DNA from: Escherichia coli
GTDB taxonomy: Bacteria > Pseudomonadota > Gammaproteobacteria > Enterobacterales > Enterobacteriaceae
Assembly (NCBI GenBank): GCA_009729775.1
Contig: GCA_009729775.1_4081.1
DNA: 64,000 nucleotides
Reading direction: 5' to 3' (one strand)
Below, piece after piece: positions 2,675 through 40,506 of this stretch. How positions within the stretch are numbered: position 1 is the stretch's first letter; the number at the start of each line of letters is the position of its first letter. A program made the translations under genes and the position numbers. Under the pieces are notes generated by a model that was not told where the DNA came from, made no database searches, and saw only the letters and a list, made by a program, of their open reading frames with translations.

Positions 2675-5600
2675 ATGAATGAACGAATTATATGGAGTCC
2701 AAAAATGACTAATAATTTTAAGTTTCAACCTACACAGATGGCTGAAGCAGTACAGAAGAAGCTTTTTATTAAAAGATTGCCTGAGTGGATGCAAGGCTTA
2801 GAAGATATTCAAAAAGTCAGTGATGATGTTATTCAACAATGGTTTAATCCGGCTGAAAACGAATTAGTTGACGGCTATATTGGTGATATGGGTTCTCCTG
2901 CCGCTGCTGGTAATATCTTCTTACATGAAAGTACTGTAGCACGTCAACTTTATCAGTTGTCCACTGCTTACGTCTCAAAAAATGATGATTCGACAATTCG
3001 TTCAATTCAATTTTATGATGATCTAGTTGGATACATGAATCATTATGGAGCACTAACCGATAATGAAAGCCGTTTGTTCAACGGTAAGTTTTATGCATGG
3101 ACTCCAGCTATTAACCCAAATAAAATGAACAATTTTAGCTCATATCTTTGGGATACTAAAAACTCTTATAATATTACTTCACCTGATTACATTGTAATGG
3201 AACGTGGAGCACTTAATGGTAATACATGGTCACTACAAAACTTTTGGTATACTTTAGGTGAAACATTAGAAGATGGCTCAATATTAACTGAAGAATTAAT
3301 GCAAGATTCACGTTTTATTCGTGCACGTGCACCAATTATTGAATATAATAAAAATATTGAGCTAATTAACTACGGTACAAAATTCCGTGGAACTGTTGAT
3401 CTGTTCTCTGATATTATTAAACCTGAAGATATCGTTCAAAAAGATATTAATAGTGGTATACGTATTGATGGTATTATTCCGCAAGATGGAATGCGTATTC
3501 TATTCACCAGTATTGGTAACAATGGTGAAAACAATAGAATTTATAATGTATATGTGAAAAAAATGCAAGATGGTACTCGTGTTTATGGTTTAGCACTAGA
3601 TCCAGAAGAAGAAACCGAATCACGCCCAAGTGGTGAACCTCAAGATGGTGATGTTGTTCTAATCACTAAAGGTAATGAGTATGGTAATAGTTCTATGTAC
3701 TGGAATGGTTCTTTGTGGGTTCGTGCACAATCAAAAACTAGTGTTAACGTATTCCCTAAATTCCAACTTTATGATCGTAATGGTATCAAACTTGACAACA
3801 GTACTACATATCCATCAAGTAACTTTAAAGGTTCAGAGTTGTTTGGTTTTAAAATAAATTACAACTATGCAACTGATAGTGTATATGGATATAACATTGA
3901 ACTTGGTGATTATAATTATTACATTTATGAAAACTTTTTACAATCACAACGTTATACCTATGACCATCTTGGAAAAGAAGTTGAAATTGATGGTTTATAC
4001 TATTATAACATTATTGATGAAAATAATGAAATGAATCTTCAAACCGATTGGGTTCGTTCAGAAGAGTACTCTAAACAATTTGTAAAACAAACTCCACAAG
4101 TCCAACGTACTGATATGTATCGTGTATTCAGTACTGTTTATGATATGGAAGTTTTTAAAGAACCAGTTGATGGTATGTATGCATATGTTATTGAAGTTGA
4201 TAGAACATATCAGTACTATAAAGCTGACCGTGAAACTTATCTAGATTGGCATCCAATTACTGGTGATGGTGTTCAGATTGTAAAATATGACCATACATTC
4301 GAATTGGCACAAAAAGTTTTAGATAATGATTCTGATATTATTGAAGTTGTGGTTGATGGTGTTGATGTGTCCAAATATACCAAAAATGTTTCAAAAGGTC
4401 AAGTACAAAGCATCACTCTAGATAGTACTGTAGAATTGGATGAAGATTCTGTTATTCAAATTAGAACTTATAGCAGTACTGTAACACCTGATAAAGAATT
4501 AGGTGCTTATGAAGTTCCAATCAACCTACAAAATAACCCATATAATTCTAATATTATATACATTAACCAAGGTGACTACACTTTACATTTTCAGGATATT
4601 ATTCAAAAGAACATTACACGTGGTTCTTCTGATGATTTCAATGACTATGAAGAACGTTTGGCTAAAGGATTGGTTAATAATGGCGTAGGTACTAAAATTA
4701 TCCAAAATGAAGCATCTATGCTTCCATTGATGGCACATACTGCAAATGAAGATATTGATTTGTTTGAAGCAACTATGTTTATGCAATCTGAATATTTTAG
4801 ATTCATTAATAAATTTAATACACAAATGCTTCGTATGTATGATGAAAATCCATCAGACTTTTTACAAAATAGTGCTGCAAACATTGTTGATGCAATTTTA
4901 ACTACTATTAATATGGGACGTGATAGTTCATTCCCATTCTATTATGATAATGTTGGAAGTACTTCTGGATTCATTCGTGCATTTATACCACCAACACCAC
5001 AGTTCTTAGGTATTCTTCAAGCATATGTACCAGAAAAAGCGACATTCCTCACTGCTGGTAGTAAACCAAGCTGTTATAACATCAGTCATACTGGTATTAT
5101 TTCCAAAGCATACCGTGTTATCAATGGTGTTGATAAAATGGATGATGTTGTATATGAATTAGAAAATAGAATTTTTAATAGTATTGATAATAAATTCAAA
5201 GATGTTGATTACGTACCAGTATTGAATAGTGATGACCTTTTCCCTACACCATATTTCACTAAAACTGAATATAGTGCTGAAGAGAAACAAACATTATTAC
5301 TACGTGGATACATTAACTTCACCGCAACTAATGGTATCAGTAATAGTACACATGATTATGATCCTAACAATTGGAGAACTTGGAACTATACTGGCACTTA
5401 TTATGTAGTTAATGGTCAAAGTACTGAAATTCCTGCACGTGGTTCATGGCGTGCCATTTACACTGACCAATATGGTACATATCGCCCAGCTACCCATCCG
5501 TGGGAAATGTTTGGCTTTACACAACGTCCAACTTGGTGGAACCAAGAATACGAACCAACGGCTGTTCAAGTTGGTGAACGTGATAGTGATGTTGTATATG

Positions 5601-8600
5601 TATATGAAGCACTTGTTATGAATGAGCAAGGTGATTTAGTTCCTAGTGGTCTTTGGGATATTGACGGAACTATTGGAGATAGCAGTACTGGAACTATTTT
5701 ATTTGGTGATCGTCGTGGTCAATATGACAAATATAAAAGATTTGGTGTACAGCCATTCAAAATTACAAAAACTGGAAATAAAACATCTTCTGGTATTGAT
5801 ATTTGTGTGGTTGAATATATTGCACCTGAAATTTTAGGTTTAGTGTCTGGTTCTTTAAATCATAGAGCAGAACCTTGGACATATGGTGATATGGGTGACA
5901 TGGAATTTACATACATGAACACTACATTGTTTGCATATGACCAAATGATGCTTTTGTATAAAGCTAAACCAGCACAATTTGCTAACTATTTCTGGGATAC
6001 CCGCAACGATAACTTAAAAGAAGTATTCACTGATGGTTCACAATTCCTTTATGGTGATACACGTAAGCGTATTAATTTTGATAAAAATACAGTAGTTCAT
6101 GGTGAAAATAGCACAAGAACAATTGGTTATCAAATGTTTGTAAGTGACCATTTGATGTATCAAAATAAAAATATTACCACCAAGTATGGGGATGTAGTTC
6201 GTTCTTCTTATATAAATGTTGGTCATAAAATTGGAGGATTTACTAAAGCAGATCAGCTAACATTCAATGCTAAATCTTTCGGTCTTATTTCACAAGAAAA
6301 CCAAACCATTGGTCTTGTTCGTTCTAATAATATCCGTGATGAGCAAATGAGTGCGATCAAAATTACTTGGAATGGTAGTGCATATCAGATTGATGGATAT
6401 GACCTAGTTGGTGCTAAATTTAAATATAAACTTCCAGTAAAAAATGGTAGAAAAGTAACTCTTAAATTGGAAAACCGTAATGTTGTTCATTATAATGAAT
6501 GGAAGTCTGAAGCTTCAATTGAATATGGTAAAGTTTTCAATAGTTACCAAGAAGTTTATACTTTTATTTGTGGATATGGTGAATATCTTAAAGAACATGG
6601 TTGGATTTTTGAAGATGTAAATGATAGTGGTGCTCAACAAGATTGGAACACTATTGCTAAAGATTTCGTGATCTGGAGTCAGAATTCTCTAGTAACTGGT
6701 GAATTTATTTCTTGTACCCCAAGTGCTGCAAACGCTAAATTTGGGGCAGACTTTGGTTCAGTACAATCTATTACGCAAAATAATGGTGGTGTATGGTCAT
6801 TACTTGATGATAATAACCAAGGTATTCGCCAATATGAAATTGAAACTTCTCGTATTGGAAATATCTTCACTGTTAGAACTTTAGAATCTAATAAACGCAT
6901 TGCATTGATTCGTTTAAGTTTGTGTTCATATGAACATGCTGTTATTTTTGATGATAAAACTATTTTTGGTGATTACATTTATCAGCCAACATATGGTTCT
7001 ATTCAAGAACTAATTAAAATGTATGGATATATTACTGGTTCATGGACTGGTCGCCTACAAGCTCCTGGATTTATTATATTGGAAGCTGGAACACTACCAT
7101 CATTTGAAAAATTAGTGTCGGATTTCCAACATTATTATGATAGTGAAACTCCAGTAAGTGATGTACAATTACAAGAGTTGTCAAACCATTTGATTGGTTA
7201 TCAATCTCGTGATTATCTACAGCGTATGATTAGTAGTGATGTTAGTCGTGTTGATTTCTATAAAGGATTCATTCACGATAAAGGTACTAACCAAGTTTTA
7301 GAACGTGTACTTCGTGTTTCTAAATCATATGACACTGATGAATATAAAGCATTACAAGAATGGGCATTTAAAATTGGTACATATGGTAATATTGATGGTA
7401 AGAAAAACCTTCAATTTAAACTAATCAATGACCAATTTAAACAACAACCTCAAATGGTTTCTTTTGATGTAAATGCAACTTCAAATGGTAATGGTAATCA
7501 TATTGTATACTTCGGTGAGCAGGGTAAAGATCCTCGTTGGATTACACGTCCAAATGGTAAGTTCTCATTCCCAATGCGTAGTGGAAGAAGTGAAAATATC
7601 CAACTTCCAGATATTGGTCCAGTAACATTGGATGAAGTATCGTACACAACAAAAGATTTCAGTACTGCATATAATGACCGCATAACTTATACTAATGGTA
7701 AAGGTGAAAATCCTGAATCTGTGTGGATGTTTAAAGACGGTAATGGTTTGTGGAACATTTTTGAATTGGTTGATACTAATGTGCAAATGGTTTCTATAAC
7801 ACCTATTGAAAATACCGATGTGTATGCTGAACAATTTTGTAAAGTAACTTTAACTGATAATGTGCCACTTGAAGATGGTGATTATTATTATTTTGTTGAT
7901 GAAACTAACTTTATGCCAGATACTTTAACAGTAGAAAGTCAATATTATACTGCTGGTTCTGATCCTAAAGTTATGGTAGTTCCATTTGACACTTCTATTG
8001 ATATTGAATTTACTGATCCAGATACACGTCCACGTTTGTATCGTTATGTATCACGTTTTGCCAGTACTGATGAACGTCAAGCTTACATTGACAAGAAATA
8101 TAGTTTTAAAGCACCACAAAGTACTTTATTTGATCGTCCAACGACATATGATGAACGTACTAACATTACTGAGCTATATCTAAACGTTTATGACCCAATT
8201 AATGGTGTTATTCCAGGTGCGGCTATGCAAAACGTAACATATACTTCACCAGTTGATCCTGCACAGTATAATAGTAATGGAGAGTTAATCCAGGCTTGGG
8301 GTGCTGATAAAGTTGGTCAAGTATGGTGGAACACTAGCACTGCATTTTATTTGGATTATACTCGTGCAATTTATGACGCAGACGGTAATGTTGACATTGA
8401 TGCAACCAATGAATACAAACGTTACAACTGGGGTCGTTTATTACCACATAGTACAATTGATGTGTTAGAGTGGGTTTGTTCACCAGTTGAGCCATATAAC
8501 TGGGACAAATACTGTAAAGATGTTGCTAAGAAAAACAAAAATAATACTATGTATCTACCAAGTGGAACTGCACTTGAAGATAATTATAGTACATTTTTGG

Positions 8601-11600
8601 AATATGATAGTTCAACTGATAGTTATGTGACAAAATACTATTTCTGGGTACGTGATACAATTTATGTACCACCACTACATACCAGAACAAAATCATGTAC
8701 TGACATTGCTCGTATTATTAAAGATCCAACACAGCTAAACATTCCTTGGTTCGCTCCAATCAATGAAAACTCGTTTATTCTTAGTAATATGCAATTTAAA
8801 GTGAATGATGATACCAGTATTTTAACTGTTTCTTATTACATGGATAGTACTGAAGTTGTTAAACATGACCAGTATCAACTATGTAAAGAAGGTGACAGCT
8901 ATAACTTTAACCCACTAATTTGGGATTCAATGTGGAACTCACTAATTGGTCAAGAAACAACTGAATCAGGTTCTGTGATTAATTTATTATATCCAGATGT
9001 TGATAACGGTTTAGGTTCAAACAAAACTTGGTTCCAAAATGTTATAGAAGCTCGTAGAAACTTTGTAGAAAGTGCTAATAATTATTATAGGTCACAAAAC
9101 ATAACCACTAATAGTGTTGTTATGGAAGATGTGTTTAATGTTAAAACCACTGAAGTTAACCCGAATGAAGTTTCTTTCCGTGTATTGTCTTACAATAATG
9201 AATTAGTTATTGCAGTTGAAAGTGATAAATTTAAAGAAAATGACGCTGTTATTTTAAGTACTAGTGGATATCTACCAAATCCATTAACTTCTAGTGCTGT
9301 TTATTTTATTCACTTCGACGAAAATGGATATATTCAGTTAATGAATAGTCCAGCAAACGCGGGTAGTGTTGTTACTATAACGTTAGAGAACAAAGGTGAG
9401 GGACAACATAAAATGATTAAACAATCTGATTATGTTGAATCACTAGGAACTTCATTGGACATGACTCAGTACTGGTCATATGCTGATTGGTATGATGTTG
9501 GGTATGATAGTAACACGACTTATACTCAAGAGTCAAGCTTAGAAGATGCTAATACTAAAAACTACCAAGTTGGCGATATTATCAGAGTTACCGATAGTGA
9601 AAACATTTGGACATTGTATATTAAATCACAATCACGCGATTCAATTTATTGGAAAGCGATTGGTCGTGAAAACAGTACAGTTGAACTCAATGATATGCTT
9701 TACGCAGATTATAGTGTTCATAATGATAATGGTTCACTAAGCAATCGTGAAATCAACGTTCGTAAAGCACTAGCTTTACTCAAAAATTCTTTCGATTTAC
9801 ATCAAAGCGAAATTGTTTTTGATATGGTCAAATATGTACATGTTGAACAAAGTGTTGTGGATTGGGTATTTAAAACATCATATATCTATATTGTTGGTTT
9901 GGAACAATCATTAGTTCAAAACTATTCAAACGATAATTTGATTAATCAAATTGTTGAATATTTTGAAGAAGTTAAACCTTATAGAACTAAAATTCGTTCA
10001 CAAATAGAGCAAAAGACATCTGATGATGATTTAATAAAAGGTCTATGTAATGATTTAGATCCTAATGGATATATTTTCGTTGACGGTTCTTGGATCAAAA
10101 CTGAAAAAGATATTTGGGATTATGAGTACGCTCAATTTAATGAAATTACCCAAAAATGGGAACAGGTAGGTTCACTACCAAGTGATTTCGTTACACCAAA
10201 TAGAAGATTCCAAGAAATTGATATTATTATGCATTATGATAATATTCAGTGTAAACCAAATGAAGATTTGGCAAGCATAAATGAATTAGTAAGTGTTAAT
10301 AACAAATATCAATCCAATGAAAAGGATGCTGTTAGTAACTATGAATTACAACGTTATATATATTCTTTCCCAGAATATAGTGAAGAAACTTTCGATCTTC
10401 TTATTGCTTATCAAATGCAAATCTACTATCCAGAATTGGATGTAACACTAGGAACAGCATATGGCGTTAACCAGTGGTATAAAGACCATGCGGAAGATTT
10501 AGAAGCAACTGATGAATTTACTGCTACATTGGAGCGTGTTTATAAAGAATCAACGCAGAACGATATGTTTACTGACCTTAGACAATATGTTCAGTATAAC
10601 ACATTGGCAAACCGTTTGAAACTTTATAAAGATATAAGTGATGAGAAAATTCACGATGAAGTTGGTTGTGGATTTAGTGGACTTACCTATAATGACAATC
10701 CTAGTACTAGACTTCCATTAGGCTTTTCTTCTAGTAATGATTATAACTATGGATATTTTGAAATAAGCAGTGAACTGTATCAAAAATATATTTCATTAAT
10801 TAAAGATAAAAATCCTGACGCATCAGACTATGAAGTAAAAGTTAAACTTGAAGTTGAGTATGGTGTATATGTTTATCGTTATGATGAAGTAGGTGGTGAT
10901 ACCCGTTTCTATACTGATGCTATTCACGTATTAGCAGGTATGAGAGGGTTATTCGACAAAGACGCTACTGATAAGTACGAAAAAGCTGAAGAGATTCTTA
11001 GTAAGACCCCAATTGATATCTATGCAATTACAATGATTCCACGAAAATATGTTTACTTAAATGTTAACGGTGTATATCAAAGTATACCTGATGAACAAAG
11101 TATTGATGATTTCATGGAAGATTATTTTATCACAAATGGTGAAATGATTGAACTAGCTGAAATAAATCTAGATGATTTACCACTAGATCAAAATAATCCA
11201 ATGTATTCTGATTATCAATATATACTTGATAGTATTACTGAAGCTAAGTACTTCAATGATATGAATGCATTTGATAACCTAGCATTGGAATCTCAAACTT
11301 CTTCAATAAAATGGGAAGTTAAAGATGATGAAGTTGATCCTTATATTGTGGATATATCTGACATAAACCCTTCTGGGCGTGATGTTGGTCAAATTAGATT
11401 TACAGTTGATGGATATGGGTTTGACAATGTATCTCTTGTACAATTACGTGATAACAGCAGATATCAAACTGAAGGTATGGCAATTATCAATCCATATAAA
11501 CATACAGAAGCAATTGTTAGTATTCCTTCATATGCTAAGATTGAAAATGATATTAATAAAACAACATCGAAGTTTGATGAAAAATATTTCTATCGTGTGA

Positions 11601-12676
11601 GATCTATTAATAGCTTAACTGAAGCAGAAATAGTTGACAATGACCTATCTGATGGTGATAAGGTGATGATTTTCACTCCTGATGGTGAAGATTTTGTGAG
11701 ATATCAAAATCACACATGGGAAACAATCTTGCGTGTATCTAACATCAAAAACAATACAACTCCGATCCTATTCACTGTAAGAAATACAGGTAAAGAAACG
11801 ATTGAATTGATTGATGAGAGTACTGGTGCAGTTCTCCGTTATGATAATATCACTCTTGCACAACAAAATGAGCCAGTACAGCCTCTTGCATTGAACATTG
11901 TTCGTGTTAGAACATTTGCTGACCCAGAATTTGTGAAGAATGGTATCAAATTGTACGAACAAAATAGAAATTACACAATTGATGTAATTAATTATGATGT
12001 TTTCTACGATACTACTTTAAATGGTGGTAAGTACAATGACGGAATAACACCAGATGACGTTGACGTTTGGATAATCTCTAACGAAATATTTGATGTTGAT
12101 GGAATTACTATCGACAACGGTTATAACCTACCAATTACTGGTGCGGGAGTTCTTAGTGAATTAGCAAGAACTAAAATGACTGATAGTTTAGAAATCAACG
12201 TTATTGAATATGATTCAAGTGTTATTCAACCGTTTAGAAATAATGAAGGTATATGGGTTTATGGATATCCAATGGTTGACGGTATGTACATCGGTGTTGT
12301 TGGTGGCACGGTTACTAACATCACAACCATTAGTGAAGAAAATACAACCTATGTTTCTCAACCTAAATCAATAAGTCCTTATAGTATTAGAAATAATGTT
12401 TTATCCGGTTCTGCCGCGAACATGAATGATATTATATCGATTGGATATGAAAAAGTTGAAGTTAGAAATGCAAATAATTTACTCCGTGGAGTAATGTATA
12501 GTGCAGAACATGATTTTAAACTTAATACTACATATTCATTCAATGGAATTAATTTAGGTAATTATGATATGTTAAAACGTTACACACAAAATAGTTACAC
12601 TATAGATCTTTCAGTATACACTGATAGTCTACAAGTTAGTGGTAATGATATTAAAAATATATTATTAGTTAAGTAA
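2675..12676 (+). CDS. giant virion-associated protein (3333 aa in ORF track)
   Basis: Uninterrupted 10-kb ORF. The likely true start is the ATG at 2705 (MTNNFKF...), 7 nt after a GGAG motif. Its position between structural genes suggests a tail/baseplate or fibre component; no motif recognised. Confidence 0.85.
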   Translation: MNERIIWSPKMTNNFKFQPTQMAEAVQKKLFIKRLPEWMQGLEDIQKVSDDVIQQWFNPAENELVDGYIGDMGSPAAAGNIFLHESTVARQLYQLSTAYVSKNDDSTIRSIQFYDDLVGYMNHYGALTDNESRLFNGKFYAWTPAINPNKMNNFSSYLWDTKNSYNITSPDYIVMERGALNGNTWSLQNFWYTLGETLEDGSILTEELMQDSRFIRARAPIIEYNKNIELINYGTKFRGTVDLFSDIIKPEDIVQKDINSGIRIDGIIPQDGMRILFTSIGNNGENNRIYNVYVKKMQDGTRVYGLALDPEEETESRPSGEPQDGDVVLITKGNEYGNSSMYWNGSLWVRAQSKTSVNVFPKFQLYDRNGIKLDNSTTYPSSNFKGSELFGFKINYNYATDSVYGYNIELGDYNYYIYENFLQSQRYTYDHLGKEVEIDGLYYYNIIDENNEMNLQTDWVRSEEYSKQFVKQTPQVQRTDMYRVFSTVYDMEVFKEPVDGMYAYVIEVDRTYQYYKADRETYLDWHPITGDGVQIVKYDHTFELAQKVLDNDSDIIEVVVDGVDVSKYTKNVSKGQVQSITLDSTVELDEDSVIQIRTYSSTVTPDKELGAYEVPINLQNNPYNSNIIYINQGDYTLHFQDIIQKNITRGSSDDFNDYEERLAKGLVNNGVGTKIIQNEASMLPLMAHTANEDIDLFEATMFMQSEYFRFINKFNTQMLRMYDENPSDFLQNSAANIVDAILTTINMGRDSSFPFYYDNVGSTSGFIRAFIPPTPQFLGILQAYVPEKATFLTAGSKPSCYNISHTGIISKAYRVINGVDKMDDVVYELENRIFNSIDNKFKDVDYVPVLNSDDLFPTPYFTKTEYSAEEKQTLLLRGYINFTATNGISNSTHDYDPNNWRTWNYTGTYYVVNGQSTEIPARGSWRAIYTDQYGTYRPATHPWEMFGFTQRPTWWNQEYEPTAVQVGERDSDVVYVYEALVMNEQGDLVPSGLWDIDGTIGDSSTGTILFGDRRGQYDKYKRFGVQPFKITKTGNKTSSGIDICVVEYIAPEILGLVSGSLNHRAEPWTYGDMGDMEFTYMNTTLFAYDQMMLLYKAKPAQFANYFWDTRNDNLKEVFTDGSQFLYGDTRKRINFDKNTVVHGENSTRTIGYQMFVSDHLMYQNKNITTKYGDVVRSSYINVGHKIGGFTKADQLTFNAKSFGLISQENQTIGLVRSNNIRDEQMSAIKITWNGSAYQIDGYDLVGAKFKYKLPVKNGRKVTLKLENRNVVHYNEWKSEASIEYGKVFNSYQEVYTFICGYGEYLKEHGWIFEDVNDSGAQQDWNTIAKDFVIWSQNSLVTGEFISCTPSAANAKFGADFGSVQSITQNNGGVWSLLDDNNQGIRQYEIETSRIGNIFTVRTLESNKRIALIRLSLCSYEHAVIFDDKTIFGDYIYQPTYGSIQELIKMYGYITGSWTGRLQAPGFIILEAGTLPSFEKLVSDFQHYYDSETPVSDVQLQELSNHLIGYQSRDYLQRMISSDVSRVDFYKGFIHDKGTNQVLERVLRVSKSYDTDEYKALQEWAFKIGTYGNIDGKKNLQFKLINDQFKQQPQMVSFDVNATSNGNGNHIVYFGEQGKDPRWITRPNGKFSFPMRSGRSENIQLPDIGPVTLDEVSYTTKDFSTAYNDRITYTNGKGENPESVWMFKDGNGLWNIFELVDTNVQMVSITPIENTDVYAEQFCKVTLTDNVPLEDGDYYYFVDETNFMPDTLTVESQYYTAGSDPKVMVVPFDTSIDIEFTDPDTRPRLYRYVSRFASTDERQAYIDKKYSFKAPQSTLFDRPTTYDERTNITELYLNVYDPINGVIPGAAMQNVTYTSPVDPAQYNSNGELIQAWGADKVGQVWWNTSTAFYLDYTRAIYDADGNVDIDATNEYKRYNWGRLLPHSTIDVLEWVCSPVEPYNWDKYCKDVAKKNKNNTMYLPSGTALEDNYSTFLEYDSSTDSYVTKYYFWVRDTIYVPPLHTRTKSCTDIARIIKDPTQLNIPWFAPINENSFILSNMQFKVNDDTSILTVSYYMDSTEVVKHDQYQLCKEGDSYNFNPLIWDSMWNSLIGQETTESGSVINLLYPDVDNGLGSNKTWFQNVIEARRNFVESANNYYRSQNITTNSVVMEDVFNVKTTEVNPNEVSFRVLSYNNELVIAVESDKFKENDAVILSTSGYLPNPLTSSAVYFIHFDENGYIQLMNSPANAGSVVTITLENKGEGQHKMIKQSDYVESLGTSLDMTQYWSYADWYDVGYDSNTTYTQESSLEDANTKNYQVGDIIRVTDSENIWTLYIKSQSRDSIYWKAIGRENSTVELNDMLYADYSVHNDNGSLSNREINVRKALALLKNSFDLHQSEIVFDMVKYVHVEQSVVDWVFKTSYIYIVGLEQSLVQNYSNDNLINQIVEYFEEVKPYRTKIRSQIEQKTSDDDLIKGLCNDLDPNGYIFVDGSWIKTEKDIWDYEYAQFNEITQKWEQVGSLPSDFVTPNRRFQEIDIIMHYDNIQCKPNEDLASINELVSVNNKYQSNEKDAVSNYELQRYIYSFPEYSEETFDLLIAYQMQIYYPELDVTLGTAYGVNQWYKDHAEDLEATDEFTATLERVYKESTQNDMFTDLRQYVQYNTLANRLKLYKDISDEKIHDEVGCGFSGLTYNDNPSTRLPLGFSSSNDYNYGYFEISSELYQKYISLIKDKNPDASDYEVKVKLEVEYGVYVYRYDEVGGDTRFYTDAIHVLAGMRGLFDKDATDKYEKAEEILSKTPIDIYAITMIPRKYVYLNVNGVYQSIPDEQSIDDFMEDYFITNGEMIELAEINLDDLPLDQNNPMYSDYQYILDSITEAKYFNDMNAFDNLALESQTSSIKWEVKDDEVDPYIVDISDINPSGRDVGQIRFTVDGYGFDNVSLVQLRDNSRYQTEGMAIINPYKHTEAIVSIPSYAKIENDINKTTSKFDEKYFYRVRSINSLTEAEIVDNDLSDGDKVMIFTPDGEDFVRYQNHTWETILRVSNIKNNTTPILFTVRNTGKETIELIDESTGAVLRYDNITLAQQNEPVQPLALNIVRVRTFADPEFVKNGIKLYEQNRNYTIDVINYDVFYDTTLNGGKYNDGITPDDVDVWIISNEIFDVDGITIDNGYNLPITGAGVLSELARTKMTDSLEINVIEYDSSVIQPFRNNEGIWVYGYPMVDGMYIGVVGGTVTNITTISEENTTYVSQPKSISPYSIRNNVLSGSAANMNDIISIGYEKVEVRNANNLLRGVMYSAEHDFKLNTTYSFNGINLGNYDMLKRYTQNSYTIDLSVYTDSLQVSGNDIKNILLVK

Positions 12677-12680
12677 TAAA

Positions 12681-12712
12681 AAAGGAGAGCAATATGCTCT
12701 CCTTTTCTTTTT
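12681..12712. terminator. bidirectional intrinsic terminator between convergent genes
   Basis: GGAGAGC-aatat-GCTCTCC hairpin flanked by an A-run upstream and a T-run downstream, between the giant ORF (+) and the clpA-like gene (-). Confidence 0.65.
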
Positions 12713-15000
12713 TATGCCAGTGCTTTATCTACAGCTTTGGAACGTTTCGGTTTAATACCGATTTTACCATCAATAACATCAAATGTAATGTTACCACCAT
12801 TCACAAGTGAACCACACAACATTTCTTTAGCTAGTGGTACACGAATGTTTTGTTCAATGGTACGTTTCATTGGACGTGCACCCATACCAACTTTTACCCC
12901 ATTTTTCGCAAGCCATTCACGTGCAGCTTTTGTCAATGTAACTTTAACATTACGGTCTTTGACTTGTTCATTCAAACCACCCATGAACTTATCAATGATG
13001 CTGTCAATAGCTTCACTGCTTAGGTCTTTAAACGTAACGATACTATCAATACGGTTAATAAACTCTGGTGGCAAGAATGCTTTAATTGCCTTGTCCTGTG
13101 CAGTGTCACTACCGCTCATACCAATGCTACGCTTTGTTGAATCAGCCGCACCAAGGTTTGTAGTCATAATAACAGTTACGTTATTAAAATATACAGTTTT
13201 ACCTTGAGAACCAGTCAGACGACCTTCATCCAAAACCTGTAGGAAGGTTAGTAGTACTTTACGATCTGCTTTTTCAATTTCATCAAGTAACAGTACTGCA
13301 TTAGGGAACTGCTCAATTTTATCCAACAGTAAACCGTTACCAGAATCATGACCAACATAACCTGGAGGTGAACCAATTAGTTTAGAAACAGTATGTTCTT
13401 GAGAAAATTCTGACATATCAAAGCGAATGAGTTCCGCACCAGTTGCGTCTGCTAATGCTTTGGTAATTTCTGTTTTACCAGTACCAGATGGTCCAACAAA
13501 CATAAATGCACCCTGAACACTAGATTTGTCACGCAGTCCTGCACGAGCTACCATCACGTTATCAACTAATTTTTGAATAGCTTCCTCTTGACCGTATACA
13601 CGTGAGCGTAGTGCATCTGGTAGATTACGCATACGATCACTTTCAGTACATGCAACCACGTTGATATCCAAATTGGCAATACCAGCAACAACTTCTTGAA
13701 TCAAATTGGCAGTAATAAGCTTACTATTGTTGTCACGTGAACGAACTTTTGCAGCAGCAGCGTCCATTAGATCAATTGCTTTATCTGGGAAGTGCTTATT
13801 CTTCAGGAATTTATCACTGAGAGAAATTACAGCATCCATTGCATCAGATGTGAACTCAACATTATGGAATTTTTCATACGTTGGTTTCAAACCATTAACA
13901 ATTGCACGAGTTTCATCAATTGACGGCTCAACTACATCAATTTTCATAAAACGACGAGTTAATGCACTATCTTTCTCGATATTTTTACGATATTCATCAT
14001 ATGTTGTTGCACCAATTACACGAATCTCACCACGTGAAAGTGCTGGCTTAAGCATATTGCTCATATCCATAGAACCATTACTTGCGGAACCAGCCCCAAC
14101 CATAATATGAATTTCATCAATGAAAACAATAGTATTTTCACGTTTCTTTAGTTCTTTTAGCAAATTGTCGATGCGTTCTTCAAATTCACCACGATACTTA
14201 GTACCAGCAGTCAATGCACCAACATTTAGTGAAAGAATTTCAACGTCTTTCAGGTGTTCAGGTACGTTACCATCAGCAATAGCTTGTGCAAGCCCGTCGA
14301 TGATTTGTGTTTTACCTACACCAGCTTCACCAGTGAGAATAGCATTCTTTTTGGTTTTGCGAGCAAGAGTCTCAATCAATGCAGACAATTCTTTCTGGCG
14401 ACCAATCATAGGATCTAGTTTGCCTTCTTTTGCAAGAGCAGTTAGATTCGTTGTATAGTCTTCCAAACCTTTTTGTTTAGATGATTGCTGCTGTTGAGCC
14501 ACTTTTTTATCTCCAATCGGTTCGTCATTAATACTTTGTAAGTTGATACCCTTATCAAGTGACTCAACGTGTTTTTGCAATGCACGTGCAGCTTCAGTAC
14601 AGCTAACACCTTCTTCTTTTAACGCAGCTTCTAGTGCTGTGTTAGGGAAAGACAGACATTCGAATAGAACAAAATATGCATCAATCGAAAAATCATCACT
14701 TTTTAGTTGTTCAATAACTGATTTTTTAGAAAGCTCATGTACAACGCGATTCACTAGAAGTGAAGTTCGATTCGCGTCTTCATCTTTAACACTTTTTGGT
14801 GCATGTGGAACTGTTGTATTTTTAAGATAGTTCATCAGGCGGTTGTGCAGTTTGTCTGCATCAATGTTCATATCTTCAAATACGTTCTTGATGCTATCAA
14901 TAGTCAGTACTGTGGCACTTACGTGGTCAATAGTCAAGAATGTATGACCTAGAGATGTTGCCAGTTCGTCGCTTTTTTTGAACAATTGAGTAAGATTCAT
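12712..15000 (-). CDS. clpA: ClpA-like two-ring AAA+ unfoldase (Clp ATPase)
   Basis: Clp N-domain, D1 Walker A GEAGVGKT and D2 Walker A GPSGTGKT, Walker [10 protein letters not shown], no ClpB middle domain. A loop KRSIGMSG sits where ClpA carries its ClpP-docking IGL tripeptide. ORF track begins at GTG 15021; probable start is the ATG at 15000, 5 nt after AGGAG. Confidence 0.85.
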
Positions 15001-15040
15001 GTATTCTCCTATGTGATTCACGTCACTCTAATTAATAAAC

Positions 15041-15068
15041 ATTATATCACATTCTTACGGTTTGTCTA
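15041..15068 (-). promoter_or_regulatory. sigma70-like promoter (TAGACA-N16-TGaTATAAT) for the clpA-like gene
   Basis: Minus-strand reading gives a -35 TAGACA, 16-nt spacer and extended -10 TGATATAAT about 35 nt upstream of the SD/ATG. Confidence 0.5.
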
Positions 15069-15110
15069 CAAGGTAAATAAAGATATACCCGATTTATTTT
15101 GGAGACAAAC

Positions 15111-16604
15111 ATGACATATAGAATGTGGAAAAAAGGGAGAACCAATGATTACAAGTTCATTGATTCTGCCATTGCTGAACAATACAACATTGGTGGAGTT
15201 GACATGTGGCTTTATGCATATGTCGGTCCAAAACAAGTTGCTGACAACACTGACTTATCCTATGGAGGTGATTATACATCTTCAGGATCAGTTGTGTCAA
15301 GTATTGGCGATTTAATTTTTGGTGACACACCAAACAGAAACTACAACCTTGAAGCTATCACACTTAGTTGTGTCTATCAAGTTCAAGAAGCAACTCCAGA
15401 CTTGAAAATCCCAGGATTGTTCTTTAATTTCAACACTATGGACATCACAATCCATTATAATACAATGATGCAGCGTTTAGGTAGAAAAATCATGCCAGGG
15501 GATGTGATAGAACTACCAAATTTACGTGATTTTGATGTATTGGGTAAAGATACAGGTCTAAACCGCTTCTATGTCGTCCAAGATGCATTTCGTACATCTG
15601 AGGGATACTCGGTTACGTGGCAACATCACATTTATAAACTTAGAGTTAAACCGCTAACCGACTCACCTGAGTACTCCGATTTACTCGGTAACAATAATTA
15701 TCCTGATAATCCAGATGACCCTAATAATGGTAATGGAAATACCGATGATGGTTCGTCGGAAAACAGTAACTATGGCAATGAAATGGATATCATGAACCGT
15801 ATCATCATGCAAGCTGATGATGAAGTACCCTATATTCATTATACAAATGAACATTTGTATGATGATCGACCTGATACAGTAGATTTATCAAAATATATGC
15901 TTAACGGTTATGATTTTCCAGAAGAACCTGCCGATGGAATGTATTTTTTGAAAAAAACATACCCAGTACTCAAAGAGTTTGTTAATGATACATGGATTTC
16001 TGTGGAAGTCAAGCGTGGAACCATCTTTCCCAGAAAACCAATGGATGGTGACTTCTTCTTTAAAGAAAATGACGCAGATGTGACAGGTTATACGTTGTAT
16101 CAATATGATAAAAGTGCTAAAAAATGGTTAAATTGTGATGTAGAATATACTACCAGTGATGTTCCACCAGAAGATGTGGAAGATTTTTGTATTTTTTATA
16201 AAGAACCACACATTTATCAGTATAATGATGACAAGTGGGGGGAACCAAAGGTAACTTATGTCAATGAACCATTCACGTCCAATTGTGTATATGGTAATAT
16301 TGATTCGCAACAAGATTATCGTCCTAAAATTCCACCAGCACGAGGTACAGTCCCTGAAGGAAATATGTTCCCAACTGATGCAGTAGATGGTGACTATTTC
16401 TATCGCACCGATTATACTCCAGTTACGTTATGGGAATTCAATGCAACTAAGAATTCATGGGTTATTTTTGATTATGGTGGAAGAAAACCGTGGGAAGGTG
16501 CAGACTTAGCACTTACACAGTTTGTAAATAGTGATAACAAAGTTCCATTACATGACGCAGTTAAACCTAATACTGTTTATCGCATACATAAGGACACAGA
16601 ATGA
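15111..16604 (+). CDS. virion structural protein (neck or baseplate-like?)
   Basis: ORF track starts at TTG 15099; the ATG at 15111 follows GGAGA by 5 nt. Weak by-eye resemblance to T4-type neck proteins; Asp/Asn-rich low-complexity stretch in the middle. Confidence 0.7.
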   Translation: MTYRMWKKGRTNDYKFIDSAIAEQYNIGGVDMWLYAYVGPKQVADNTDLSYGGDYTSSGSVVSSIGDLIFGDTPNRNYNLEAITLSCVYQVQEATPDLKIPGLFFNFNTMDITIHYNTMMQRLGRKIMPGDVIELPNLRDFDVLGKDTGLNRFYVVQDAFRTSEGYSVTWQHHIYKLRVKPLTDSPEYSDLLGNNNYPDNPDDPNNGNGNTDDGSSENSNYGNEMDIMNRIIMQADDEVPYIHYTNEHLYDDRPDTVDLSKYMLNGYDFPEEPADGMYFLKKTYPVLKEFVNDTWISVEVKRGTIFPRKPMDGDFFFKENDADVTGYTLYQYDKSAKKWLNCDVEYTTSDVPPEDVEDFCIFYKEPHIYQYNDDKWGEPKVTYVNEPFTSNCVYGNIDSQQDYRPKIPPARGTVPEGNMFPTDAVDGDYFYRTDYTPVTLWEFNATKNSWVIFDYGGRKPWEGADLALTQFVNSDNKVPLHDAVKPNTVYRIHKDTE

Positions 16605-30992: not shown

Positions 30993-31055
30993 TAATTATA
31001 ATAATAAAGGTGTCACTCTTTTGGGTGACACCATCATAACAAGTGAGGTAGTTAT

Positions 31056-31835: not shown

Positions 31836-31843
31836 ATAATAAA

Positions 31844-31867
31844 GGTCAACACTAGTTGGCCTTTTTT
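31844..31867 (+). terminator. intrinsic terminator
   Basis: GGTCAAC-acta-GTTGGCC (one G-U wobble) followed by T6. Confidence 0.5.
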
Positions 31868-31889
31868 GCTTCATTATAAGGAAAAATAT

Positions 31890-32765: not shown

Positions 32766-32775
32766 TAACATATTA

Positions 32776-32852: not shown

Positions 32853-34817
32853 ATGAGTATAAATCGAATTAGAGGTGATGGTGGTGTAATTATTGATAGT
32901 AAATCTTTTTTAGAGTTACCGAAAGCACCATCAAAAGAAACCGCTGATGTAATAAGATCAGGGATGATTAGATACAATAAGGAATGGAAATCATTTGAAG
33001 GTGTTCTGGATTTTGAAGATGGTACTATGGCATATCGCCGCTTTGCAAACTTAGATGCAAATGGTAAACTTCTTACTTCCCAATTACCAGATTCAGTAAC
33101 TAGTGGTTTGCAGTTTGTTGGTACATATAATCCTATTCCAGATGATATTGACCCACCTTTAGCACAAACGCCACTACCAGCACCATCAGCATCACTAAAT
33201 GGTGATTATTATGTTGTTCGTGGTATTATGGATGCAGCACAAGCACACTTTGAAGCAAATAACCCACAAACAAGTCCGGTTACATTTACACCTACGAACC
33301 CAACTGGTCAAGGTAATTGGATTGAAATTTTATATTATGTTGACTCCAATCCAAATATATCTGGTGCTAAACTTGTAACATACGCTTTTGCAAGAATTAT
33401 TACTGCATCTATTCCTAGTACTGGTCATGATGGTCTTAAAAATTTAGCAACAGATGCTGACTTAACCAAACCATTTGCTTCAGGCGTTCCAATGAACCAA
33501 ACCGCACTATCAGATGGTGATTGGATCATTATAACTGAAGATAAAAACATACGTCTACGCCAGTCAAGAACAAGCATTTCTGCTGCTTCTGTATTATATG
33601 ACAATACAGTAATGATTGCAAACCATCGTCAATTTAGAACGAACGCAGGAACCGTACAAACATCCATAGATAACGTTGTGATTGAATGTTTACGTAGAAC
33701 TGGTGATTCCATGTATAATGATGGAACAAGCGGCTCAGGGCGTTTTGGTGTGGTGTATGGTAGTGCAGCAGCACCAGCATTGACATTTAATAACAATCCA
33801 TTTGATCCAACCAATAACCCAGGTAATGACCCAGCTAAGTGGTCCGATGCTAATACTGGTATATTTCATCCAGCCGATGACGCAATTGGGTTCAGTACTG
33901 CTGGTACAGAACGTGTTCGAATTAATAATTCAACACTAACATTATATCAATCAACATCAACACCTGCATCAACACCAGTACTAAGATTTGATAATGCAAC
34001 TAATACTAATGTGGGATTAAGTGCTAGTAGTAATATTATTTCATTTAGTTCAATGAATAAAGTTCAAGTTGAATTTAAAAATGGCGAAAGTGCGTTTCAT
34101 GGTAATATTGTTGTTGATGGTACAAGTACATTAACTGGGGATACATCAGCTAGTAATATAACTGCTAGTGGTAATTTAAACATTCAAGGTAATACCACAT
34201 TAGGTGATGCTGCATCAGATACCATTACAGTTAATGGTGTTAGTACTTTTACAGCTAATACTAATTTTAATGGAACAACTAATAAATTTAAAAATATAAA
34301 TCTATTAGCTAATGGTATAATTACATTAGAAAGTACTACTAATCAAAGTACAATCCAATTAGTTAGTTCTGATTTAAAACTATCAATGGGTAATTATGCT
34401 GATGTAAGTATCTATGATAATGGAACTATAAGAACACGTTTTAATAGATATGGTATCCAATTACCAGTACTAGCTACTATTGATAACTCTGTTGGCGTTG
34501 ATGGTATGATTGCATACTCCAATACCGAGCGTACTTCAATGCAAAAAGTTCAAGGTCAATGGGTTCCAATTGGTTCAGGTTCAGTGAGAACCGATGCTTT
34601 TACCATTTCATCTTGGGTATTAAGTGGTGACTACTACACCCTTACTGTAACAGCCTCAAACATCGTCACAGCAGAGATACAGGAACAGGTTAGTCCTGGT
34701 GTCTATACTCGTGTTGAGGTCGATAGCGTGACGTTTAACGGCACTAACGTAGTGTTCAGTATACCTTCAACACCTGATGTACGTTTCGACGGAAGAACAT
34801 TGGTAACAATTAGATAA
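32853..34817 (+). CDS. tail fibre-like protein
   Basis: 654 aa, GAGGAAA SD, Thr/Asn/Gly-rich beta-type composition, last gene of the + strand fibre cluster. Confidence 0.7.
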   Translation: MSINRIRGDGGVIIDSKSFLELPKAPSKETADVIRSGMIRYNKEWKSFEGVLDFEDGTMAYRRFANLDANGKLLTSQLPDSVTSGLQFVGTYNPIPDDIDPPLAQTPLPAPSASLNGDYYVVRGIMDAAQAHFEANNPQTSPVTFTPTNPTGQGNWIEILYYVDSNPNISGAKLVTYAFARIITASIPSTGHDGLKNLATDADLTKPFASGVPMNQTALSDGDWIIITEDKNIRLRQSRTSISAASVLYDNTVMIANHRQFRTNAGTVQTSIDNVVIECLRRTGDSMYNDGTSGSGRFGVVYGSAAAPALTFNNNPFDPTNNPGNDPAKWSDANTGIFHPADDAIGFSTAGTERVRINNSTLTLYQSTSTPASTPVLRFDNATNTNVGLSASSNIISFSSMNKVQVEFKNGESAFHGNIVVDGTSTLTGDTSASNITASGNLNIQGNTTLGDAASDTITVNGVSTFTANTNFNGTTNKFKNINLLANGIITLESTTNQSTIQLVSSDLKLSMGNYADVSIYDNGTIRTRFNRYGIQLPVLATIDNSVGVDGMIAYSNTERTSMQKVQGQWVPIGSGSVRTDAFTISSWVLSGDYYTLTVTASNIVTAEIQEQVSPGVYTRVEVDSVTFNGTNVVFSIPSTPDVRFDGRTLVTIR

Positions 34818-34820
34818 TAA

Positions 34821-34851
34821 AAAAGGGAGAACTGATGTTCTCCCTTTTCTT
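34821..34851. terminator. bidirectional intrinsic terminator
   Basis: GGGAGAAC-tgat-GTTCTCCC hairpin with an A-run before and a T-run after, between the convergent fibre (+) and thyA (-) genes. Confidence 0.65.
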
Positions 34852-35781
34852 TTATACAGCCATCGGTGCTTTAATTGTTGGCATTGGATTGTAATTCACT
34901 AATTTGAAAGAATCCATTGTGAAATCTTCAATATTAGTAATTGTAGGATCAAGCCATAATTCAGGTAATTCACGAGGTTTTCTCTGTAGTTGTTCTTTTA
35001 CTTGTTCAACGTGGTTTTTATAAATGTGGCAATCACCACCATTCCAAATAAATTCTCCAACATCTAAACCAGTAATTTGTGCAATCATATGAGTTAGTAG
35101 TGAATAACTACTGATATTAAATGGAACTCCCAAAAATAGATCAGCGGATCTTTGATGTAGAATGCAGCTTAGTTTCCCTTGTACTACACAAAATTGTACA
35201 AAGCTATGACAAGGTGGCAACGTCATATCATCAAGCTCACCAACGTTCCATGCACTTAGAATATGGCGACGACCATATGGATCGGACTTTATACCATTGA
35301 TTAGTTCCTGTAATTGGTCAGTTGTACGTTTCATAACAACACCATGTGAACCAGTATAATCGATAACTTTGTATCCTTTATCTTTTAATTCTTGAATTTC
35401 TTCAGTACTGGAACTAAATTTATAATCTTCCCATTCACGCCATTGCTTACCATACACTGGACCTAACTCACCATCAGTATAACCAAGAGCAACGCCTTGA
35501 TTTAGGTAATTATCTGTCCAAATAGTTTTCTTTTCTGTATCACGAGTTCCATGCAAAATTTCACAAAGGCGACGCTCATCATGGGAACCTTCAATAAACC
35601 ATAGTAATTCTGAAGTCATTGCTTTCCAAGCTAGACGTTTTGTCGTCACTGCTGGGAAACCATCTTTAAGGTCAAAACGCATTTGTTGACCGATAAGTTT
35701 GATTGTTCCAACACCAGTACGGTCAACGCTTTCTACGCCTTCATCTAGAATTTTTTGATATAGTTCTTGTAGTTGTTTCAT
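34852..35781 (-). CDS. thyA: thymidylate synthase (ThyA family, T4 td-like with insertions)
   Basis: Aligns by eye along its whole length with E. coli ThyA: catalytic PCH, conserved HQRSADLFLGVPFNISSY with the uracil-specifying Asn retained, C-terminal IKAPMAV. Confidence 0.9.
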   Translation of the reverse strand: MKQLQELYQKILDEGVESVDRTGVGTIKLIGQQMRFDLKDGFPAVTTKRLAWKAMTSELLWFIEGSHDERRLCEILHGTRDTEKKTIWTDNYLNQGVALGYTDGELGPVYGKQWREWEDYKFSSSTEEIQELKDKGYKVIDYTGSHGVVMKRTTDQLQELINGIKSDPYGRRHILSAWNVGELDDMTLPPCHSFVQFCVVQGKLSCILHQRSADLFLGVPFNISSYSLLTHMIAQITGLDVGEFIWNGGDCHIYKNHVEQVKEQLQRKPRELPELWLDPTITNIEDFTMDSFKLVNYNPMPTIKAPMAV

Positions 35782-37391: not shown

Positions 37392-38816
37392 TTAACTACG
37401 TTGACGCTTTTTATCAGCTTCATATTCGTAGTGTACAGTCTCACCAAATGGTGCAACTTTATTTGGGTTACTGTGAATCACGAACAGTGTTTTACAGTAG
37501 TTTGGATCACCCCATGACTGCCACGGTTCACCATCAGTAAACATTACAAGCTGTTTAGGCTTGTAGTTGTCGTTCTTCATATGAACCCATACTGCTTCAA
37601 AGTCAGTACCACCACCACCTTTTACTGGATATTCCAGAATCTTACGTTCTTCGCCAGTTTTGTAATCCTTTACAGTATAAACTTCAGTATCAAAAGTCAT
37701 GATACGAATCTTAAACTGTTTGAATTGTTTAGTGATGCCAAGAACTTCACTAATGAAATCACGAAGCATATCTTCAGAAATAGACCCAGAAGCATCTAGT
37801 GCAATCGCAATATCAATATCATCATCTGGTTTCATCCCTGGGTAAATTGGATTACCATAGAATGAACCATTAGAACCAAAACCTGCACCCCAAGAACGAC
37901 GATTAGGATTTTGATATGTTGCATCAGACTTCAACCAACTACGAAGTGTACGTTGAAGTTTTGAACGCCAGTCAATCTTTGGTTCTTTAAAGTTGTTAAT
38001 CATACGAGCGATTTCTGCTGGTGTACCACCTGCACGAGCAGCATTCATCATTGCTGTTTTGAAATCATCCATGTAATCACGTTTTTGCTGTTCACTTGAA
38101 CCACCCTCTTGACCTTCTTGTGGAACGTCATGCTGGTCAATGGTAGTACCTTTTGGTTTACCCTTACCATCTTTAATATCGCCAAAAGTACCGCGATTTT
38201 TACCTTCACCTTCGCCACCACCACTTTGTGGTTGACCTTCACCTTCACCATCTTCTTTTTGTTCTTCTTCTTCAAGAAGAATGTAAATCTCTTCTGCGGT
38301 CATACCTTCATATTTTTTATCATACAACCATGAACTTTGGATTTTTCCAATTTTCTCACGAACGATGATTTGGTTAATGGCATAATCCGCTGCACGGTTA
38401 TAACGTTGTGGATCACGCATACCACGACGAAGGAAGTGATCGTAAGCACAGTGTAGAATTTCATGACAAATTACAGCAATAAGGTTTTCATCAGTCAAAC
38501 CTTCAGTCATTTCTTTTAATTGTTCGTCTGTAACTTCAGGATGCTTTTCACGAATAGCTTCTTCATATTCTTTCTTTTTAGATGGGTCTTGAATACCCAT
38601 TACAAATTCTACGTTGTAGAATAGATGTTTACCATCAACTGCTAGAGTACGACACCATGTATTATTAGCAACTGGACGTAAACGTGAAGCGAGTACACCA
38701 AAGAATGGTGCAGTTAACATCAAAGATGTACGAGCCAGAACCAGACGATCTTGACATTCTTTCTGGAGTGCCGGAGATACTTCATTGAATCTGGAAGTAG
38801 ATTTGTTATCTGACAT
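37392..38816 (-). CDS. vWA-domain protein with N-terminal HExxH metallopeptidase-like domain (MoxR-partner type)
   Basis: HEILHCAYDH (HExxH) in the N-terminal half; C-terminal vWA with MIDAS DASGS (IAIALDASGSISE) and a downstream FTDGEP. Confidence 0.8.
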   Translation of the reverse strand: MSDNKSTSRFNEVSPALQKECQDRLVLARTSLMLTAPFFGVLASRLRPVANNTWCRTLAVDGKHLFYNVEFVMGIQDPSKKKEYEEAIREKHPEVTDEQLKEMTEGLTDENLIAVICHEILHCAYDHFLRRGMRDPQRYNRAADYAINQIIVREKIGKIQSSWLYDKKYEGMTAEEIYILLEEEEQKEDGEGEGQPQSGGGEGEGKNRGTFGDIKDGKGKPKGTTIDQHDVPQEGQEGGSSEQQKRDYMDDFKTAMMNAARAGGTPAEIARMINNFKEPKIDWRSKLQRTLRSWLKSDATYQNPNRRSWGAGFGSNGSFYGNPIYPGMKPDDDIDIAIALDASGSISEDMLRDFISEVLGITKQFKQFKIRIMTFDTEVYTVKDYKTGEERKILEYPVKGGGGTDFEAVWVHMKNDNYKPKQLVMFTDGEPWQSWGDPNYCKTLFVIHSNPNKVAPFGETVHYEYEADKKRQRS

Positions 38817-38837
38817 GTATATTTCCTCGTTTAGTTA

Positions 38838-38869
38838 AGATAAAAGAAGGATACCATTAGGCATCCTTC
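38838..38869 (-). terminator. hairpin/attenuator between the MoxR-like and vWA genes
   Basis: 10-bp stem with one mismatch, followed on the minus strand by CTTTTATCTT directly ahead of the vWA SD. Confidence 0.4.
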
Positions 38870-40385: not shown

Positions 40386-40413
40386 ATTATATCACATCGT
40401 TTCAACTTGTCAA
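40386..40413 (-). promoter_or_regulatory. sigma70-like promoter P1 (TTGACA-N16-TGaTATAAT)
   Basis: Consensus -35 and extended -10 when read on the minus strand; about 170 nt upstream of the MoxR-like start. Confidence 0.55.
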
Positions 40414-40478: not shown

Positions 40479-40506
40479 ATTGTATCACATCATTCTATCT
40501 TGTCAA
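40479..40506 (-). promoter_or_regulatory. sigma70-like promoter P2 (TTGACA-N16-TGaTACAAT)
   Basis: Second copy of the same promoter architecture, about 90 bp upstream of P1. Confidence 0.5.

Follow-up and report, generated by a model that had tools for sequence, protein, structure and literature searches.

A ClpA-type unfoldase gene of a 121Q-like jumbo coliphage and its candidate ClpP and ClpS partners

Genes annotated as ClpA-like are an established feature of the Rak2-like jumbo phages. ClpA was reported to be highly conserved across most of these phages (Attai et al. 2018). An account of jumbo-phage AAA+ chaperones that includes ClpA also noted ClpA/ClpX, ClpP and ClpS; its authors suggested that ClpA acts in translocation or assembly and that ClpP and ClpS are directed at the host (Iyer et al. 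2021, PMC7824862). The family corresponds to PHROG 4871 ("ATP-dependent protease"), whose members include gp581 of Escherichia phage 121Q, RaK2_00069, the homologues in GAP32, SE_PL and XaC1, and Atu_ph07 gp292. Here we describe a further member, located on the minus strand at 12712..15000 of a 64,000-nucleotide stretch deposited under Escherichia coli (contig GCA_009729775.1_4081.1); this whole stretch is referred to below as the window. The gene is predicted to encode an intact ClpA-type protein unfoldase of a jumbo coliphage of the 121Q/PBECO4 type. Gene and family are already known and annotated, and what we add is small: the clade-wide co-conservation of three genes, a promoter type common to them and a drifting interface, which make a testable hypothesis and no discovery.

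The closest described machine is the E. coli ClpAP protease. In this complex residues I617, G618, L619 and I620 of ClpA insert into a pocket of ClpP that is built from A52, L48, F49 and F82 of one protomer and L23, Y60, Y62, I90, M92, F112, L114 and L189 of the next, and the C-terminal strand of ClpP is part of the pocket (10.1101/820209). The corresponding contact of ClpX is sensitive to small changes: binding to E. coli ClpP is severely impaired by I268L, F270L or an altered loop length in ClpX and is lost altogether with ClpP R192K (PMC7112951). The simplest reading of the observations below is that a ClpA-ClpP(-ClpS) set is encoded in the phage genome and transcribed by the host RNA polymerase. 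We assign a probability of about 0.6 to the window protein being the unfoldase of such a phage-encoded protease.

The ClpA-like protein and its family

Bases 12000-16000 of the window are 99.0-99.3% identical to about 20 Asteriusvirus jumbo myoviruses, including the Escherichia phages 121Q, PBECO4 and phAPEC6 and Salmonella SD-series phages. The window as a whole corresponds to positions ~313258-250541 of 121Q in reverse orientation. Its ClpA is 99.6% identical to 121Q gp581 (762 amino acids, annotated "ClpA-like") and matches PHROG 4871 from end to end (1036 bits, profile positions 11-761 of 764). The open reading frame (ORF), 12712..15021 on the minus strand, is intact. Translation most likely begins at the ATG at 15000, because an AGGAG element (approximately 15004..15011, minus strand, by sequence reading) lies 6 nucleotides upstream and the resulting 762-residue protein agrees with gp581; the alternative GTG at 15021 would add 7 residues and has no comparable ribosome-binding site.

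The predicted protein has an N-domain (residues ~1-150), a linker (~155-178) and two AAA+ rings, D1 (~180-440) and D2 (~445-750). Pfam matches are Clp_N, AAA, AAA_lid_9, AAA_2 and ClpB_D2-small, of which Clp_N is weak (one repeat, 21.7 bits against a cutoff of 20.7). Residues 24-145 nevertheless align with the N-domain of E. coli ClpA at 21% identity; identity is 51% in D1, 45% in D2 and 42% overall. The alignment with E. coli ClpA (1ksf) forms a single stretch (query 24-748, chain 20-734, E 8e-181), whereas those with ClpB, ClpC and Hsp104 break into two. Since the ClpB and ClpC matches split in this way, the protein lacks the middle domain (M-domain), and with a docking-type loop also present (see below) a ClpB-type disaggregase can be ruled out. 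The original prediction, a complete double-ring ClpA-type unfoldase with N-domain, D1 and D2, is thus confirmed. ClpA is also the best-scoring NCBIfam model for the protein, with a full-length match.

Structure prediction gives the same picture. The AlphaFold model, built from 51 homologues with a predicted local distance difference test score (pLDDT) of 79, contains an 8-helix N-domain (pLDDT ~80 outside two loops), a disordered linker, D1 and D2, and no extra coiled coil. The modelled D1-D2 portion superimposes on the ClpA chains of ClpAP cryo-electron microscopy structures with target-normalised template-modelling scores of 0.82-0.88.

From 93% down to 53% identity the ClpA homologues form an unbroken series, carried on contigs of some 350 kb; identity then drops to 46% or less. 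We take the matches at or below 46% to lie outside the clade and probably to be cellular ClpA. Across the 114 phage-clade homologues (53-100% identity), the Walker A and B motifs of both rings, the arginine fingers, the sensor-2 residue and the pore-loop tyrosine of D2 are invariant in all 114. The residues in question are K230, E296 and Y269 in D1 and K509, E574 and Y548 in D2, together with R349/R350, R650 and R709. The one exception is the D1 pore tyrosine, which is phenylalanine in 11 of the 114 sequences. The invariance of the catalytic and pore motifs indicates that an active motor is under purifying selection. A bacterial clpA that was captured and has since decayed or lost its function is therefore a highly improbable explanation. 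The only points in favor of such a remnant are the divergent N-domain and NCBIfam scores that stay below threshold, and against them stand, besides the motor motifs, the intact frame and the conservation of promoter, ribosome-binding site and terminator. Recent capture from a host is ruled out by the distance from E. coli ClpA and by the presence of the gene throughout the clade, down to 53% identity, in the same genomic slot.

Candidate partners and the putative docking interface

The unfoldase had been described as stand-alone, with no clpP or clpS in the window. Within the window this stands, as tblastn searches for clpP and clpS across the 64 kb gave nothing better than E 0.3. Genome-wide it does not. 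When the partner search was extended to the whole 121Q genome, which is about 99% identical to the window, both a ClpP and a ClpS-domain protein were found, so that the rest of the genome supplies the partners that the original prediction had sought and the idea of a lone unfoldase is not borne out.

The ClpP is gp464 (121Q 214364..215059, outside the window), which is full length by Pfam and profile scores. The Pfam CLP_protease match (PF00574, 4e-41) spans profile positions 2-179 of 182. The protein shares 35% identity with E. coli ClpP and is the sole ClpP-like tblastn match in the 121Q genome. Its Ser-His-Asp triad is intact and is invariant in about 70 clade homologues. These proteins share a conserved C-terminal extension of about 25 residues (..NE.G..LV.RRGG..) past the end of E. 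coli ClpP. RefSeq and PHROG label gp464 as a capsid maturation protease, which is unlikely: it scores 151-155 bits on true ClpP models (151 on TIGR00493, clpP) versus 51 bits on the ClpP-related head-maturation model, about threefold higher, and it is not needed as a head protease because 121Q encodes a separate T4 gp21-like capsid maturation protease, gp601. Two further annotations in 121Q are, by their scores, poorly supported. The "ClpP-like" gp473 (121Q 218420..219952) has a partial Pfam match at E 0.007 and an N-terminus that resembles a signal peptide on reading of the sequence, and we set it aside as a second ClpP subunit; the "HslV family" protein gp475 matches only at E ~1e-3.

The ClpS-domain protein is gp48 (121Q 34461..35006, outside the window). 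It passes the Pfam ClpS cutoff narrowly (24.7 bits versus 23). A profile built from 15 members of its family, compared with the PDB, gave ClpS in all of the top ten matches (best E 4e-8) and nothing else significant, and hhalign of this family against E. coli ClpS gave 95% probability. Profile methods were needed, as tblastn with E. coli ClpS against 121Q did not detect gp48. The ClpS core is flanked by clade-specific extensions, about 70 residues N-terminal and about 40 C-terminal. The gene lies in an operon with an IF3 homologue; read along 121Q 33944..35623, the order is the IF3 homologue (IF3_N plus IF3_C), gp48 and a KTSC-domain protein.

ClpS-like matches are confined to 72 Rak2-like genomes, among them 34 from Escherichia, 10 from Klebsiella, 8 from Salmonella and 8 from Erwinia. 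In Rak2-like genomes the per-genus counts of ClpP-like and ClpA proteins are nearly equal to those of the ClpS-like proteins; over the three they come to about 34 in Escherichia, 10-11 in Klebsiella, 8-10 in Salmonella and 8 in Erwinia, with further cases in Yersinia, Pectobacterium, Serratia, Cronobacter and Xanthomonas. Beyond the Rak2-like genomes, matches to ClpA and ClpP occur in other phages. Host ClpP need not be the partner of the phage ClpA, since the same genome encodes ClpP gp464 and the ClpS-domain protein gp48, conserved through the ClpA clade.

In the mechanism we propose, both AAA+ rings of a ClpA hexamer would be active, and the hexamer would unfold its substrates and pass them into a ClpP tetradecamer, most likely that of the phage itself (the 121Q gp464 family). 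Docking would be through the I-G-M loop of D2, and the divergent N-domain would serve as a platform for the gp48-family ClpS protein or bind substrates directly. From the features described we infer that ClpA pairs physically with ClpP and with ClpS, that the set is made early and that it acts by proteolysis. Its substrates could be host proteins, phage regulators, or giant structural proteins that are misfolded or in surplus.

The docking loop had been predicted to occupy the position of the ClpP-binding IGL tripeptide, and the alignment bears this out: I626-G627-M628 of the window ClpA aligns with I617-G618-L619 in the "KSIGLIHQD" segment of E. coli ClpA. Its codons fall at 13117..13125 on the minus strand, as computed from residue numbers. 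Residues 624-630 have low pLDDT in the model and are presumably flexible. Compared with E. coli ClpA, the loop is shortened by 2-3 residues and has no equivalent of I620. The helix-loop-helix docking element is kept in all ClpA homologues compared, and its tip varies. Among the 114 clade homologues position 1 of the tripeptide is I, M, L, V or T, Gly occupies position 2 in 95 sequences, the rest having Ser, Asn or Ala there, and position 3 is Met in 59 and otherwise V, F, L, A, G, I or H. The variants include IGM, LGM, MGM, IGV, IGA, IGG, LGL, VGF, IGL and, in the SE_PL/7t3 clade, MNM or MSM.

The facing surface of the phage ClpP has also changed. Nine of the 12 residues of the IGL pocket are still hydrophobic or conservatively substituted, and three positions are replaced clade-wide: F82 by S, N, C, G, M or Y; L114 by G or T; and Y60 by T, V or S. 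The equivalent of R192 is R, K, Q or P across the clade, with R retained in 121Q (in "GPRN").

These data bear on the proposal, made in the original prediction, that the phage ClpA may dock through IGM on the host ClpP and redirect host proteolysis, for example towards host defence or regulatory proteins. On this view the phage ClpP would have no part in it or would work with another partner. A hydrophobic-Gly-hydrophobic tripeptide at the exact IGL position in a flexible loop is what such docking would use, and host ClpP would be abundant when an early promoter fires. The published docking motif, attributed to Kim et al. in 2001, is reportedly [LIV]-G-[FL], and a Met at the third position lies outside it. 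The shortened loop and the missing I620 equivalent also argue against this proposal, as does the severe effect of comparably small substitutions and loop-length changes on the binding of ClpX to E. coli ClpP (PMC7112951). So does the phage's own ClpP, which appears catalytically intact and is conserved with ClpA across the clade. Furthermore, phages of Enterobacteriaceae (Escherichia, Klebsiella, Salmonella) carry IGM, IGV, LGL, IGA or MNM. Assuming that ClpP is near-identical among these hosts, such variation is not expected if the loop docks to one conserved host pocket. We regard docking on host ClpP as unlikely, and note that it is compatible with a phage-encoded ClpA-ClpP(-ClpS) protease, since mixed use is possible.

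Both putative faces of the interface thus drift while the catalytic residues stay constant, a pattern that seems to fit a private phage interface better than a loop tied to one conserved host pocket. This argument is only suggestive, because, residue by residue, the ClpA tripeptide did not covary in any clear pattern with the ClpP pocket or the R192 equivalent in 12 genome-matched pairs. A more far-reaching version, which we offer tentatively and consider rather unlikely, is that Rak2-like phages carry a self-contained, orthogonal ClpA-ClpP-ClpS machine whose interface is insulated from host ClpX, ClpA and ClpP and whose ClpS-like adaptor has a new specificity. Expressed early from promoters of the host type, it would reshape the proteome of the infected cell, for example through the breakdown of defence or regulatory proteins. 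The features of the proposed orthogonal interface would be [ILM]-G-M loops, the shortened helix-loop-helix, the replacement of F82, L114 and Y60, the variable R192 equivalent and the C-terminal extension of ClpP.

Transcription signals and neighbouring genes

A near-consensus sigma70 promoter had been predicted for the gene and was found again here. This promoter, P1 (15068..15041, minus strand), consists of TAGACA, a 16-nucleotide spacer and TATAAT, with an extended -10 element carrying an upstream TG (TGTGATATAAT), and matches 11 of the 12 consensus positions. An 11/12 match alone carries little weight in AT-rich DNA, and a looser promoter scan gave no excess over shuffled sequences. P1 is credible because its position is conserved, because promoters of this kind are enriched genome-wide and because TGTGATATAAT is strand-biased. 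A P1-like promoter is kept at -65 to -77 from clpA in the RaK2-like, SE_PL, GAP32 and XaC1 genomes, making five lineages with the window, while the rest of the spacer has diverged. The 121Q genome contains 118 promoter matches of at least 11/12 versus about 28 expected (roughly 4-fold), almost all on the coding strand of non-structural genes, and 32 perfect matches versus about 1.4. All 10 copies of TGTGATATAAT in 121Q lie on one strand, against an expectation of 0.5 per strand, and the clpA P1 is one of these ten sites (121Q 298206, approximately window 15051-15041). TGNTATAAT is found 85 versus 16 times on the two strands. The strand bias of TGTGATATAAT and TGNTATAAT defines a putative strand-coherent promoter class in the phage.

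The partner genes have similar signals: gp464 is preceded by TGGACA-16-TG-TATAAT at -63, and the IF3-ClpS operon by a 12/12 sigma70 match at -74. Because all three genes lie behind strong sigma70-type promoters, the host RNA polymerase would probably make the machine early, before the late structural genes around clpA.

A second candidate promoter, P2 (15271..15300, minus strand), is a perfect TTGACA-18-TATAAT about 300 nucleotides upstream of clpA. It runs antisense to the neighbouring structural ORF at 15111..16604 (plus strand), in the 5' part of that gene. SE_PL and GAP32 retain both hexamers at 12/12 and the RaK2-like genome at 11/12, although the site falls in a hypervariable amino-acid stretch of this ORF. 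P2 may serve clpA as a second promoter or may regulate the late gene from the antisense strand. Downstream of clpA, at 12680..12706, a hairpin with a stem of 12 to 14 bp between A and T runs (-19.1 kcal/mol, z -7.1) is a predicted bidirectional intrinsic terminator, which can serve both clpA (minus strand) and the convergent 3333-residue protein gene (plus strand).

Other transcription signals were noted in passing. Between 15022 and 15110, in the plus-strand reading, AAATAAATAC is followed within a few bases by TATA(T/A)AA, upstream of the divergent structural gene. The combination, as read by eye, recurs across most of the five lineages compared; the window and the RaK2-like genome have looser forms of it. 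It may be the late promoter of the phage. Six sigma70-like matches of at least 11/12 are packed into about 1.2 kb at 40386-41549 (minus strand), several of them inside ORFs called virion structural in 121Q (gp560-562). Two tandem strong sigma70 promoters (40506..40479 and 40413..40386, minus strand), one of them perfect with TGTGATATAAT, precede a gene pair at 37392-40216 (minus strand), in which an AAA ATPase gene (38891..40216) comes before one whose product has metallopeptidase (DUF2201_N) and VWA-like domains (37392..38816). This pair agrees with the MoxR-vWA-peptidase pair of group 2.2 jumbo phages (Iyer et al., PMC7824862).

The clpA gene lies antisense between late structural genes. On one side is the convergent gene for the 3333-residue virion structural protein (2675..12676, plus strand; 121Q gp582), which has no Pfam domain on record; on the other are the divergent virion structural protein gene (15111..16604, plus strand; 121Q gp580), for which no Pfam family was found, and a gp15-like gene. 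In four relatives, the RaK2-like, SE_PL, GAP32 and XaC1 genomes (ClpA identity 75%, 70%, 62% and 53%), clpA occupies the same slot, with a convergent gene of 3322-3342 codons and a divergent structural gene of about 495 codons followed by a gp15-like gene. The earlier description of a gene inserted between structural operons is therefore right as to the opposite strand and the structural surroundings and misleading in the word "inserted", as the slot is the same down to 53% identity. Elsewhere in the window, the region 29382-32773 is about 91% identical to 121Q and partly rearranged, versus 98.6-99% for the remainder; it lies within the tail-fibre region and is possibly a host-range cassette.

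The fixed slot invites another explanation, namely that the protein is a ClpP-independent unfoldase or chaperone that helps to fold, translocate or assemble virion parts such as the 3333-residue protein, the baseplate or the tail, in line with the translocase/assembly role proposed by Iyer et al. (2021, PMC7824862). The retention of clpA between a virion gene of about 3330 codons and the gp580/gp15-like genes down to 53% identity agrees with such a role, as does the degenerate docking tripeptide in part of the clade. The position alone says little, however, because these genomes are broadly syntenic in this region. In addition, clpA has its own sigma70-type promoter on the opposite strand and would not be transcribed with the late genes, the docking helix-loop-helix is present in all homologues, and clpA co-occurs with the genes for ClpP and the ClpS-like protein. 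The 62 proteins detected in phAPEC6 virions include the 381.9-kDa giant neighbour but not ClpA (PMC7247149). Taken together, an assembly function independent of ClpP appears rather unlikely. Packaging of ClpA in the virion is likewise unsupported, given its absence from the phAPEC6 table and the recovery from CBB virions of one ClpP peptide only.

Weighing the evidence and comparison with known systems

The reading of the window ClpA as the unfoldase of a phage-encoded ClpA-ClpP(-ClpS) protease draws on an intact gene with its domains in the ClpA order and its motifs conserved, on the joint conservation of the three genes, and on a promoter and a genomic slot that relatives retain. Several observations weigh against it. 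The window protein misses the NCBIfam ClpA equivalog cutoffs for TIGR02639/NF008263 (755 versus 993 and 656 versus 1350 bits). The docking tripeptide has no Gly in 19 of the 114 clade members and ends in Ala or Gly in some others, for which reason strict docking to ClpP may not hold everywhere, and the two faces of the interface do not covary clearly. The three genes are dispersed in 121Q, at ~34 kb, 214 kb and 298 kb, with no shared operon. The ClpS-like protein is a further point. The E. coli ClpS residues that we take to contact the N-degron or ClpA are N34, D35, D36, T38, M40, H66, E79 and K84; of these gp48 keeps D35, T38 and E79, and the others are changed (N34D, D36P, M40A, H66N, K84F). 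The fixed position of clpA beside a giant virion gene could instead mean a role in assembly. Finally, no experiment or transcriptome dealing with a phage ClpA, ClpP or ClpS turned up in our searches of the literature.

Very little work has been done on AAA+ proteases encoded by phages. Should the three dispersed genes make one machine, the members of a large clade of jumbo phages that are therapeutic candidates (Escherichia, Klebsiella, Salmonella, Erwinia, Cronobacter, Xanthomonas) would bring their own regulated proteolysis into the cell, with possible consequences for host takeover, counter-defence or quality control of giant virion proteins. The co-evolution of docking loops and ClpP pockets could also be studied to advantage in a naturally diverged ClpA-ClpP interface.

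Among described proteins, E. coli ClpA (PDB 1ksf, 1r6b, 6w1z, 7uiv) is the nearest cellular counterpart of the window protein. The two share the N-D1-D2 order without an M-domain, the same Walker, arginine-finger, sensor-2 and pore residues, and the position of the loop. They differ in overall identity (42%), in IGM for IGL, in the shorter loop and in the scores below the equivalog cutoffs; moreover, the window gene is phage-encoded, has an early-type promoter and is not adjacent to clpS. ClpB/Hsp104 and ClpC are likewise two-ring AAA+ proteins of the Hsp100 class, and their D1 and D2 align well. Unlike ClpB, the window protein lacks the M-domain, is about 100 residues shorter and has a D2 helix-loop-helix with a hydrophobic-Gly-hydrophobic tip; we know of no ClpB with such an element. 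For the peptidase, gp464 resembles E. coli ClpP in its full-length match to the Clp protease fold, its invariant triad and the 9 of 12 pocket residues that are hydrophobic or conservatively substituted, and departs from it in its 35% identity, the replaced F82, L114 and Y60, the variable R192 equivalent and the C-terminal extension of about 25 residues. Within PHROG 4871, the Rak2-like "ClpA-like protein" family, nothing sets the window gene apart from its relatives.

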